From: Ionaspis alba
Lineage: Eukaryota
Direction of reading: 5' to 3'
Assembly (NCBI GenBank): GCA_964255285.1
Contig: CAXUUL010000004.1
Span: 62,001-109,295, forward strand
Length of the DNA stretch: 47,295 nt
Positions within the stretch are counted from its first letter, which is position 1; the number at the start of each line of letters is the position of its first letter. Below, piece by piece: positions 3,948 to 6,730 of this stretch. Position numbers and translations under genes: made by a program. The notes beneath the pieces were generated by a model. It was not told the DNA's origin, did no database searches, and was given only the letters and a program-made list of their open reading frames with translations.

Positions 3948-4445
3948 GCGGAGAGAGCTCGAGCTTGAGATGAGAGGTCAAGACAACGGGAGCAGCAGTG
4001 GAAAATGGCGGTGTCAAAATGCTGAAGCACCAGCAGACTTCCTAGGCTTATAGACATCCTTCGTTGAGGCGGAGAGCAACCCAGTACTGTGTACCGCGAC
4101 TATCTTCATGCCATAGCGGTCGAAAGCTCCCAGGTTTATTGACGGAATGGCACCTACCTTAGAGCGGCGTAGTGCTCCACGATTCAGACCAGGTTGCGTT
4201 TCAGCCATGGTACGCTCCCGTATGCAGTGTGAAGAGGAATGCCCGACGGTGGCACGGATGGAGGACGTCGTGGCTTGGGCTGCATGGATGAAAAGGCTTC
4301 ACATCAGTGACCGATTTGAGCAAGCTTTAAAACAATGCAAGAATTTCCAGATCCAATATTGAGAGCATTGATATTCATACATCAATATTTCTATCCCAGA
4401 CAATACGTATCATCGCCTCTTTTTGACGGATAAAAGGATTACGAT

Positions 4446-4678
4446 CAACAATGCCAATCGAAAATCTGGAAAATAACGGAGCTGTGAAGCGAACAGGACG
4501 NNNNNNNNNNNNNNNNNNNNNNNNNNNNNNNNNNNNNNNNNNNNNNNNNNNNNNNNNNNNNNNNNNNNNNNNNNNNNNNNNNNNNNNNNNNNNNNNNNNN
4601 CAACAATGCCAATCGAAAATCTGGAAAATAACGGAGCTGTGAAGCGAACAGGACGGGAGCTGTGAAGCGAACAGGACG
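4446..4678. repeat. 55-bp sequence duplicated on both sides of a 100-N gap, plus a 23-bp tandem repeat
   Basis: 4446-4500 is identical to 4601-4655. GGAGCTGTGAAGCGAACAGGACG is tandem at 4633-4655 and 4656-4678. N run at 4501-4600. Confidence 0.95.
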
Positions 4679-5481
4679 AGAGCAATCCTTTCGCACCCCT
4701 GGAGAGGTTGAAACACGGGAGCGGACGACGTGATTTGCAGGATGTCGTTTAAGCGCCGAGCTCAAGTCTCTGTATCTACCCACGAGAGGTGCAGACCCAC
4801 CATGAATAGGAAGAAGTCAGACGAAGATACTCGGCCACAACGCCACGACAGAGTGCCGCTATCGTGCATTTACTGCTTCGGCCTGGAGATCACGAGCATC
4901 TGGAAAGAAGAGGTGCATAAACAACAAGGCCACACCTAACGACTGCTCGACCCTTCGCAACGAGTCCGGACGGACAGGACTTGCTACAGCAATGTGGAGG
5001 CTAGACTGGTGAAGCTGAGGCAGAGCACTTGCGTTTCGTCTGGTCACCGAAAGTCAGAGGTCCTGCTCCGAATCCTTTCTCTCTGTGCACGCCACACTGC
5101 CGCCTGTTCCCTGCCCTTGCTGCCGCGGTAAGGAGATTGGGGGTTGGCCCGCTCGTGCCAACGGAAGATTTAGGCGACTCCGGCCAGGGATTAGTGGCTA
5201 AGTCCCGAAGTTACACAACTCGAGGGTAGTTGGGAGCATCTACTGGACTTAAGCTGATACGCAGCTCATTCGAGCGTCGCTGTGACACGATTTTCTTCCC
5301 TGAAACCTGCAAATCCCACAACGAACGGCCGTCTTTATTGCGTTTTTCATGGTCAAATCATAGAAAGTCCCGCAGAGCATGGCGCCTTCGACGAGGCACC
5401 CAGCCCCTTCTATGAAAAGACAGTCCTCTTTGCCCCGAAGCGCCACGCCAAATTCAGAAATGGCAGAAACTTTTTATGAGC

Positions 5482-6730
5482 TCATGTCATGGTGGTTTCC
5501 ATCTCATTGTTCCCATGCATCACGCTATCCTCCCTCATAGCACGGTTTTCCCGCTCTGAATCCAAACCAAGTTCAATGTTTCTGGGGATATCTTTGTTCG
5601 ACTCACGCGCTTTCTTCTCCGCCCACGCCCGAGTCCTGACCAGCTCCAGCAGTTTCGACCTGGTTCTATCGCCTTGACTAAGAAGGATGGCTTCATTGAC
5701 ACGTTTAGCAACGTCCTTACGTAGGCTAGGATCAAGTAACGCCTTAAGCGGTGGAGCAAGATTTTCTGGAGGAAAAATGAGAAGAGACATAGTCCGCTCA
5801 AGATCTTCAAGAAATTCAGGGCTGGTCGGAGCGCGAGGAGCAAGATGAGTGGTGGCAAACGTTAAAGCTGGAGTGATGTCGCCATTTGCAGTTGAGGTGC
5901 ATGTGCGAATGAGCTCTACCAGCTGGAGACGAAGGAGAGCAAAGTGAAGAGAAGAATCTCGGTCAAGGATCTGGTAACGCATTAGGCGCGAACAGTAATA
6001 GAGAATGACACATGGCGTATGGACAAAATAAATGGTGCTCAGACTGAAGACTGAAGTAGTTGTAGTTTTGATTCTCATCAACACCTCGGAAGGTATATGA
6101 GTGGTGCATGAAACAAGGTCTAATCATAGCAACGAGAGGGTGACGGCTTTTTGTTTGGCGTATTTGTGGGGAGCCTTACCTGTGGATTCAATTCGTTGAT
6201 TTTTTCTATAGCAGCCTGTATCTCACCTCCATATATCAAGTTCCGTATGTCTACCCGCTCCTGTATCGACTCGACATCCGCTCTTGGCTGAATGTTCGCC
6301 TCAAGAGCGAAGTTCTGTGCGGCTGACGGGTATCCTTCGCTGACCAGATAGTCCATGACTAGGGAATTGATGAGACTACCGTTACGAGAAGAGGTTAGCA
6401 GCTGATCTCCACAACGAGCCGTAGCAAGAATCAAGAGCGTTATTGTACGAGAGCCGATTCAGAGTGACAAGTCAATGTGTCTCCTCAGGGTATTCAGAGA
6501 GATTCCCAACTTGATGAATAATACATCATGCAAAGGTGAAGGGTGTGAAGTTAGAACGGAGCGATCGGCGCAGAAAGAAGGCCTTCTCACGTCTTGCTGA
6601 ATTTGACATCTTGCACTCGAGTCTCGAAGGTGGGTAGCCTAGAAGCAGTTGCGCTGGAGGTTGTGGAGGACGTCTCAGAGGAAGGATCAGCCTCAGCGTG
6701 GAGAGTGCGCTGACAATGTTGGCTCACCAT
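5482..6730 (-). CDS. GID8: GID/CTLH E3 ligase complex subunit Gid8 (LisH-CTLH-CRA)
   Basis: Exons 6728-6730 (ATG only), 6591-6673, 6180-6375 and 5482-5970. LisH LINSLVMDYLVSEGYPSAAQNF, CTLH ERVDIRNLIYGGEIQAAIEKINELNPQIL, CRA ALTFATTHLAPRA...FLEDLERTMSLL. Confidence 0.9.
6035..6132 (-). ncRNA. Intronic box C/D snoRNA in GID8 intron 3
   Basis: Minus strand: box C ATGATTA (6127-6121), D' CCGA (6089-6086), C' TGATGA (6080-6075), D CTGA (6042-6039), terminal TGCT/AGCA pairing. The D guide ACTTCAGTCTTCA is complementary to the conserved LSU rRNA segment UGAAGACUGAAGU. The host intron is 209 nt versus about 55 nt for typical introns here. Confidence 0.85.
6455..6534 (-). ncRNA. Intronic box C/D snoRNA in GID8 intron 2
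   Basis: Minus strand: box C ATGATGT (6529-6523), D' CTGA (6497-6494), C' TGAGGA (6487-6482), D CTGA (6462-6459). The D' guide TGGGAATCTC is complementary to LSU rRNA GAGAUUCCCA. The host intron is 215 nt. Confidence 0.82.

Follow-up and report, generated by a model that had tools for sequence, protein, structure and literature searches.

Two described small nucleolar RNAs (snoRNAs) of the box C/D class in fungi bear most closely on the element reported here. Nc CD55 of Neurospora crassa (GenBank EU780979), a 137-nt intronic RNA from chromosome IV, was cloned, detected on Northern blots, and recorded as an orphan (PMC2780460); in the available text of PMC5824354 the family CD_55 is "exclusively found in Neurospora" and has no target assigned, and the supplements S9, S14, and S16 of that paper may hold one. 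Saccharomyces cerevisiae snR40 guides methylation of 18S ribosomal RNA (rRNA) at Gm1271 by a stretch upstream of its D′ box (accessible parts of PMC4344503 and PMC5199042), and in the accessible part of PMC4344503 this D′ guide also serves Gm562, with the D guide serving 25S Um898. We analyzed a 47,295-nt stretch of Ionaspis alba DNA (contig CAXUUL010000004.1 of assembly GCA_964255285.1, positions 62,001–109,295), referred to below as the window, and describe in it an element within an intron of the GID8 gene that we hold, with very high confidence, to be a genuine box C/D snoRNA gene. Its RNA appears to belong with Nc CD55 and probably carries two guides that direct methylation, one at A1474 (yeast numbering) of the large subunit (LSU) rRNA and the other at G1271 of 18S rRNA. 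An initial annotation of the window had already proposed a box C/D snoRNA borne in a GID8 intron, a claim that the box layout, the conservation, and the GID8/CTLH exons on either side now bear out.

The mature snoRNA occupies approximately 6035..6133 on the minus strand, on which all features described below also lie. It lies in a 208-nt intron (5971..6178) whose splicing is predicted from the reading frames, with donor GUAAGG at 6178–6173, a candidate branch site CUAAU at 5985–5981, and acceptor CAG at 5973–5971; the snoRNA starts 45 nt past the donor (6178) and ends ∼53 nt ahead of the branch-type site. At the intron borders the frames read ...AAIEKINELNPQ / ILDRDSSLHFALLRLQ..., stopping at ...INELNPQ and resuming at ILDRDSS.... 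The upstream exon (6179..6373; translation LINSLVMDYLVSEGY...INELNPQ) holds a LisH region, and the downstream exon (5482..5970), the last of the gene, has 162 codons plus the stop and PF10607-type protein matches, its best named matches being Trapelia coarctata (81% identity) and Xylographa (77–78%), which carry PF10607 with or without PF08513. By these translations and matches both exons beside the intron encode a GID8/CTLH protein. The label "intron 3" given to the host intron in the initial annotation could not be confirmed, the exon reading giving the second coding intron.

Read 5′ to 3′, the RNA begins in a flank GUUGCU, of which GUUGC (6129..6133) forms the 5′ half of a terminal stem with GCAC (6035..6038), a pairing of 3–4 bp that includes one bulge; in the Rfam Z221 alignment the window RNA is shown with the identical 4 terminal-stem pairs and bulge. 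The C box AUGAUUA (6121..6127) is non-canonical, having U and not G at position 6, and is followed by a spacer and the D′ guide UUUCAUGCACCACU (6100..6113), whose core CAUGCACCAC (6101–6110) pairs with 18S GUGGUGCAUG and places C6104 opposite the predicted target G. The D′ box CAUA (6096..6099), which follows the family consensus C-N-N-A and lacks the consensus G at position 3, leads into a hairpin (6082..6095) made of UACCU, the loop UCCG, and AGGUG, and a single U then precedes the C′ box UGAUGA (6075..6080). After an A-rich spacer comes the D guide CUACUUCAGUCUUCAG (6044..6059), which holds the 3′ antisense stretch CUACUUCAGUCUUCAGU and the 13-nt antisense stretch ACUUCAGUCUUCA (6045–6057) and sets U6047 opposite the LSU target A; the D box CUGA (6039..6042) follows. 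The C, C′, and D boxes and the short terminal stem thus stand on the minus strand where the initial annotation had placed them. At gathering thresholds Rfam gives 0 matches over the whole window (the initial annotation had noted that a hit to a named family would remove the novelty), and our own covariance model (R1) gives a single match in the 47-kb window, at 72.9 bits, with the window sequence itself among the sequences of the model. The sequence elements of a box C/D RNA are found: C and D boxes, a terminal stem, C′/D′ boxes, and antisense stretches of at least 10 bp with a fifth-position target.

Compared by eye with Nc CD55 (blocks UGAGAUGAUUAGAAC...UUUCAAUCAUGCACCACGCAUAAGCCUUCCG...UUGAUGAGAACCAACCACUUCUUUAUGAUUCCU in supplementary file 1 of PMC2780460), the window RNA has three blocks in common: AUGAUUAGA, which takes in the C box and its flank; UCAUGCACCAC-N-CAUA, made up of the 5′ antisense stretch plus the D′ box; and UUGAUGAGAA, in which the C′ box is joined by its flank. 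Both RNAs are intron-encoded, and the D box of Nc CD55 is AUGA, as in most members of the family described below. Blocks shared outside the guides suggest, in this comparison by eye, that the two RNAs belong together. They differ in two places. Nc CD55 has a GC-rich insertion of ∼50 nt between D′ and C′, where by eye repeated GCCUUCGGGC-like units stand in for the one short hairpin seen in other fungi. The 3′ guide of Nc CD55, in turn, keeps CCACUUC alone, 7 bp, shifted by 7 nt along the LSU quasi-repeat GAAGACUGAAGUGG, and looks by eye like the family guide minus one 7-nt unit of a CUUCAGU repeat. Because its LSU guide is reduced to 7 bp, Nc CD55 would have yielded no target earlier.

The pattern used to scan a metagenome collection constrained three elements alone, namely 10 letters from the 5′ antisense stretch, the C′ box, and 12 letters from the 3′ antisense stretch. 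Both guides occur at a minimum of 118 loci in the collection, which together with the window makes at least 119 matches and 81 distinct sequences; family counts here and below are among the matches listed. Conservation of the C′ box in these loci is by search design, and so is that of both guide cores. The initial annotation had proposed conservation of boxes and guide in orthologous introns as a check, and the part that concerns the boxes stands, since C, D, and D′ were left free in the pattern and are kept; the part that concerns the guide cores was fixed by the pattern. Of the 81 distinct sequences, 80 have a C box and one comes from a cut contig; the box reads AGGAUUA in 44, AUGAUUA in 26, AAGAUUA in 6, ACGAUUA in 1, and AUGAUGA in 3, giving an xGAUUA box in 77 of 80. 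The D box lies exactly 2 nt past the 3′ stretch in all 81 (AUGA in 73, CUGA in 8). One nucleotide past CAUGCACCAC, the D′ box reads CUCA in 45, CAUA in 23, CUUA in 4, CUAA in 4, CGUA in 2, CAUC in 2, and CCAA in 1, which is C-N-N-A throughout except for the two CAUC, with C1 and A4, the expected C′ contacts, invariant or nearly so. A further view comes from the public run X2, in which three contigs match a 401-nt test stretch; the two long ones (37 kb and 26 kb) are from other organisms, align solely within 6032–6116, and have flanks unlike the window. Such alignments fit an island of conservation inside the intron and have no bearing on expression. The search of public sequencing runs listed two for this stretch, both of unspecified kind, and not one catalogued as RNA.

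The boxes C and D of the family depart from the canonical form together. In the canonical C/D kink-turn the G at position 6 of the C box pairs with the C of CUGA in stem II. Our alignment covers 79 of the 81 distinct sequences (left out were L020, cut at its contig end, and one sequence without a C box), and in it boxes C and D each have an invariant GA, and C-box position 6 and D-box position 1 read UA in 70, GC in 3, and other, unpaired combinations in 5 of 78 rows. Taken as whole boxes, the distinct sequences combine GAUUA with AUGA in 72, GAUUA with CUGA in 5 (the window included), and GAUGA with CUGA in 3, with 0 cases of GAUGA and AUGA. On the canonical pairing, the family shows what reads as a compensated U-A version of the C/D stem-II pair, with the window as a U·C intermediate. 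The terminal stem is variable across the family, with 60% of cells paired and double changes in 3 of 3 tested pairs; it ranges from 0 to 15 bp, and 7 of 80 sequences have no adjacent stem.

Between D′ and C′ a hairpin of at least 4 contiguous bp forms in 71 of 81 distinct sequences, a level that just 43% of shuffled versions reach, and it is built from 42 distinct stem pairs. For the covariation analysis a model with 9 hand-chosen pairs was used and the 79 matches were re-aligned to it, so that the alignment leans towards the structure. On this model-fitted alignment both partners vary in 5 of 5 hairpin pairs, with 88% of the hairpin cells paired; the covariation score of 0.44 compares with 0.19 for shuffles, of which 0 of 500 reach it, and falls to 0.13 or less when the partner columns are slid by 1–3, and paired cells in the alignment come to 79% against 64% in shuffles. 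We read the element as a snoRNA because the parts that were left free in the search pattern are conserved or covary. At position 6082, the outermost pair of this hairpin, the contig of the best-matching public run reads A where the window reads C (plus strand), a G to U change in the RNA.

Complementarity to rRNA would by itself be poor evidence. The rRNA pieces compared were LSU 1–2182 and 666 nt of 18S from a non-fungal eukaryote, and 12-nt antisense matches to them number 12 runs on both strands of the window, against a shuffle mean of 12.3, which is chance level; of these runs, solely the one at 6045–6057 has two bases and then CUGA after its end. Because such matches occur at chance level, the case rests on the arrangement of the boxes and on conservation, not on complementarity alone.

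The D guide forms 16 bp with LSU rRNA at −24.9 kcal/mol, the next best site in LSU 1–2182 reaching −17.4, and the assignment of this guide to LSU rRNA in the initial annotation is upheld. So is its choice of nucleotide: by the fifth-nucleotide rule the predicted target is the first A of UUUG-A-AGAC (UUUGAAGAC), and 32 of 32 eukaryotic rRNA gene (rDNA) contigs read ...AAAUGNGANCUUUGAAGACUGAAGUGG... at this place. Members with the D box AUGA have AAU or AAA as the last guide bases in place of AGU, with register and target the same. Counting from GTTTGACC / GTTTGACCTC in L132, a yeast-like LSU contig, puts the target A at position 1474, and the start GTTTGACCTC of that contig we take to be the 5′ end of yeast 25S. 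It lies 37 nt past the C of GAUC, which is presumably Cm1437, the target of snR24/U24. Its spacing to Am1449 and Gm1450 also fits the yeast table as available in PMC5199042, and the same part of that source lists no 25S ribose methylation between Gm1450 and Um1888. Because this complete yeast map lists nothing in that interval, A1474 is unmethylated in S. cerevisiae, as the initial annotation had suspected. Its further suggestion that the site might be lineage-specific proves too narrow, both guides being kept in Pezizomycotina, Agaricomycetes, and a chytrid-like contig.

The rDNA contigs used here were obtained by searching prokaryote assemblies for an 18-nt eukaryotic LSU motif, which returned 35 contigs (L119–L153), 32 of them eukaryotic LSU rDNA and 3 chance matches in other DNA. 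These 32 are filed under bacterial and archaeal genomes and metagenome-assembled genomes; several are near-identical to a yeast-like 25S, one (L133) lies inside a 778-kb contig labeled Nitrosopumilaceae, and another (L147) has three group I introns in the LSU. Eukaryotic rDNA in such assemblies looks like contamination.

The D′ guide UCAUGCACCACU (CAUGCACCACU) pairs with 18S GGUGGUGCAUG over 10–11 bp; on an 18S fragment this duplex has −20.0 kcal/mol, and the second-ranked site −11.9. With CAUA as the D′ box, the fifth position faces the G just before UGCAUG in 18S. In N. crassa, Nc CD34 is listed for 18S-Um1265 and as the snR55/U33 homologue (PMC2780460), and its guide ...ACAUGCACUACCAU-CUGA puts the U of Um1265 two bases 5′ of the predicted target G; the yeast guides are snR55 for Um1269 and snR40 for Gm1271 (available part of PMC5199042). 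From the Nc CD34 register and the yeast snR55/snR40 table, the predicted 18S target is the equivalent of yeast Gm1271. Gm1271 is a conserved methylated site, and the window guide is predicted to select its equivalent. An assignment of the 5′ guide as a snR56/U25 guide for Gm1428 was tried and rejected: the Nc CD19 and CD41 guides for Gm1428 read UUCACAGACCUGU.

Several described snoRNAs resemble this half of the molecule. Two Rfam families, RF00300 (snoZ221_snoR21b, plants) and RF00533 (snoMe18S-Gm1358, Drosophila), have the same 13 letters UCAUGCACCACUC in the guide, at the same place after box C, and because these letters are the same they would guide the same 18S nucleotide as the window RNA. 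Their D′ box, however, is CUGA and their 3′ half is unlike that of the window RNA, which scores 15.2 bits (gathering threshold 44; E-value 2.1) and 16.5 bits (gathering threshold 50; E-value 2.5) against the two models and is not a member of either. With snR40 the window RNA would have one of three targets in common, the 18S nucleotide predicted for its D′ guide, whereas the target predicted for its D guide is A1474, unmethylated in yeast. At yeast 18S G562 the window guide would form just ∼6 bp by hand pairing with the helix-18 sequence. Closer in wording is Nc CD43, of the S. pombe snR80 type (family CD_43), which reads UGGCACCAGU-CAUA and matches 11 of 14 letters of the window AUGCACCACU-CAUA; it is a case of a CAUA-type D′ box with a published target, 18S-Gm559 (PMC2780460). 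Nc CD43 differs in targeting helix 18 (yeast G562) and not the G1271 site, and in having canonical C and D boxes; the two RNAs may have a common origin. Neither a snR40 homologue nor a guide for the G that stands two bases after Um1265 appears in the N. crassa catalogue (PMC2780460), a gap that Nc CD55 may fill. In the A. fumigatus snoRNA table none is listed with these two targets, and in the main texts of open papers we found neither the guide nor the target letters in a snoRNA context.

The host gene is nearly constant. By tblastn with the two exons that flank the window intron, 116 of 118 loci have same-strand GID8 exons on one or both sides: the upstream exon lies upstream at 112, the downstream exon downstream at 109, both are found at 105 and neither at 2, and where enough flank is available both are found at 62 of 64 loci. 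Identity to the window exons spans 31–85% at the amino acid level, and two classes of GID8 host protein are visible. Of the two loci with neither exon, one (L059) has a flank too short for a judgment. In the other (L038), an AT-rich contig, the same double-guide snoRNA (L038:544–605; AUGAUUA, CUCA, a 7-bp hairpin, AUGAUGA, AUGA) lies between spermidine synthase exons. Because this copy sits in a spermidine synthase intron, the snoRNA has switched host genes on one occasion or more. Three loci (the window, L073, and L038) were assigned to lineages, by best-hit names and with no tree. The host protein of the window is closest to Lecanoromycetes, which points to a Lecanoromycete-like ascomycete; L073, with AGGAUUA and AUGA boxes, has its best named matches in Agaricomycetes (Coprinopsis, Obba, Agrocybe, and Mycena, 78–80%), and those of the L038 contig are chytrids (Borealophlyctis 82%, Spizellomyces and others 77–81%). 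A family with both guides and the unusual boxes is thus probably older than Dikarya. By the same three look-ups, residence in GID8 would date back at least to the divergence of Ascomycota and Basidiomycota. In the main texts of open papers we found no link between GID8 and a snoRNA.

The GID8 intron preceding that of the snoRNA contains a second box C/D candidate at ∼6455–6534 on the minus strand, with a C box AUGAUGU at 6529–6523, the guide UUGGGAAUCUCU followed by CUGA at 6497–6494, and a D box CUGA at 6462–6459. It matches Rfam SNORD79 weakly (24.9 bits against a threshold of 47; E 0.05), and its guide letters are the same as those of Nc CD14, the U79 homologue on chromosome IV (PMC2780460). 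Among 74 loci with enough upstream DNA, 57 have the letters GGGAATCTCT on the same strand, no more than 900 nt upstream. GID8 seems to host two snoRNAs in consecutive introns in ascomycetes and basidiomycetes alike. Elsewhere in the window, a run of unknown bases (∼4445–4816, X in the translations) lies ∼700 nt downstream of the GID8 stop codon.

In the reading that we favor, the snoRNA would be processed from the GID8 pre-mRNA intron and, going by the behavior of its class, would assemble with Snu13, Nop56, Nop58, and Nop1/fibrillarin on the C/D kink-turn. The D guide would then pair over its 16 bp with domain III of the LSU and place a 2′-O-methyl on the first A of UUUGAAGAC (A1474), and the D′ guide, upstream of the degenerate CAUA, would pair over 10–11 bp with 18S GGUGGUGCAUG and direct a methyl to the Gm1271-equivalent G, the short covarying hairpin bringing D′ and C′ together. 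A double-guide snoRNA of this kind seems to us the probable interpretation, and a number of points weigh against it. Position 3 of the D′ box is never the consensus G, which prevents a full tandem G·A motif from forming there, and the window C and D boxes set U against C at a place where Watson-Crick pairing would be expected. The D-guide function appears to have been lost or changed in at least one lineage, that of Nc CD55. The guide cores are conserved by search design, and better targets are possible elsewhere in rRNA or in small nuclear RNAs than in the pieces compared. The fold of the whole molecule is not unusual (z = −0.49), and an unremarkable fold energy is usual for box C/D snoRNAs. 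The literature on filamentous fungi yielded no methylation data for LSU A1474 or the 18S site, and a literature search for RiboMeth-seq on fungi found no fungal study. Finally, whereas the sequences themselves show the boxes, the pairing, the register, the conservation, and the host intron, we infer the stable RNA of ∼100 nt in Ionaspis alba, its protein binding, and both methylations, the evidence for such an RNA being indirect and coming from Nc CD55, cloned and detected on Northern blots in N. crassa.

In a rival reading the RNA would be a genuine snoRNA with one working guide, the D guide alone directing methylation, at LSU A1474, the 5′ stretch beside a D′ box that lacks the GA dinucleotide acting at most in transient pairing or as a chaperone on 18S, or being a relic, and the 18S G being methylated through a separate snR40-type snoRNA. 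The want of a G at position 3 of the D′ box in all 81 distinct sequences fits this arrangement, as does a D′ duplex of just 10–11 bp, and a redundant guide may exist, the snR40 family (CD_43) being widespread in fungi with 18S-1271 predicted for 67 of 90 of its snoRNAs (available text of PMC5824354). The antisense stretch, however, stands in the exact register that sets a G of known methylation at position five, the D′ box keeps C1 and A4 unchanged or nearly so across the family, and Nc CD55 keeps the D′ antisense stretch though its LSU guide is lost. Divergence of the box is itself no bar, since yeast snoRNAs with strongly divergent C′/D′ motifs still direct efficient methylation (accessible part of PMC3116282), and the N. 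crassa catalogue has neither a snR40 homologue nor another guide for this G. We therefore regard a single working guide as rather unlikely. The initial annotation had divided the same half of the molecule otherwise, with CCGA (6089–6086) as the D′ box and the preceding 15 nt, CCACUCAUAUACCUU, as an orphan guide, matched to no rRNA or small nuclear RNA segment, that may have an unknown target. CCGA differs from CUGA at one base and is found 5 nt ahead of C′, but it comprises the hairpin loop and its closing base, is without counterpart in the rest of the family, and is replaced by CCGG in Nc CD55. The supposed guide runs from the tail of the true guide through the D′ box into one arm of a hairpin whose arms covary and whose sequence varies among homologues (hence the 42 stem pairs), and its best duplex with the rRNA pieces, −12.9 kcal/mol, is at background level. 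This layout is scarcely credible. Nor is it at all probable that the element is a cis-regulatory structure for splicing or expression of GID8 whose resemblance to a snoRNA is secondary. The strict tie to one intron of one host gene (116 of 118) and the second conserved element in the preceding intron would suit such a role; yet the same RNA with both guides occurs in the unrelated spermidine synthase gene of the chytrid-like contig, the Neurospora member accumulates as a discrete RNA (PMC2780460), and the conserved letters are exactly the boxes and the rRNA-antisense stretches in their correct registers.

The double-guide reading can be extended to the family as a whole, and to this joint account we give about an even chance. 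The family would go back at least to the separation of chytrids from Dikarya and would have been overlooked through its U-A kink-turn pair (GAUUA...AUGA); the orphan Nc CD55 would gain a function; fungal methylation of LSU A1474 would have been lost in yeast; the two D′ jobs of snR40 (G562 and G1271) would be split between two snoRNAs in most fungi; and in Dikarya the gene would have been kept in the same GID8 intron beside a U79-like snoRNA, making GID8 a long-lived double host. The RNA itself would be of the ordinary double-guide C/D kind, and what appears new is the assignment of targets to an orphan, the predicted methylation site, the compensated kink-turn pair, and the very old relationship with the host gene. 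On this reading a published single-genus orphan becomes a widely kept guide RNA with two concrete, testable targets: methylation of LSU A1474, absent from the yeast map, is predicted to be common in other fungi, and Neurospora, whose catalogue lists no guide for the conserved methylation of 18S G1271, gains a candidate for one. The family also offers a natural series for the C/D stem-II pair, with U-A as the majority form, U·C for the window and those sequences closely related to it, and G-C for a few members, and it illustrates that standard box searches can miss real snoRNAs.

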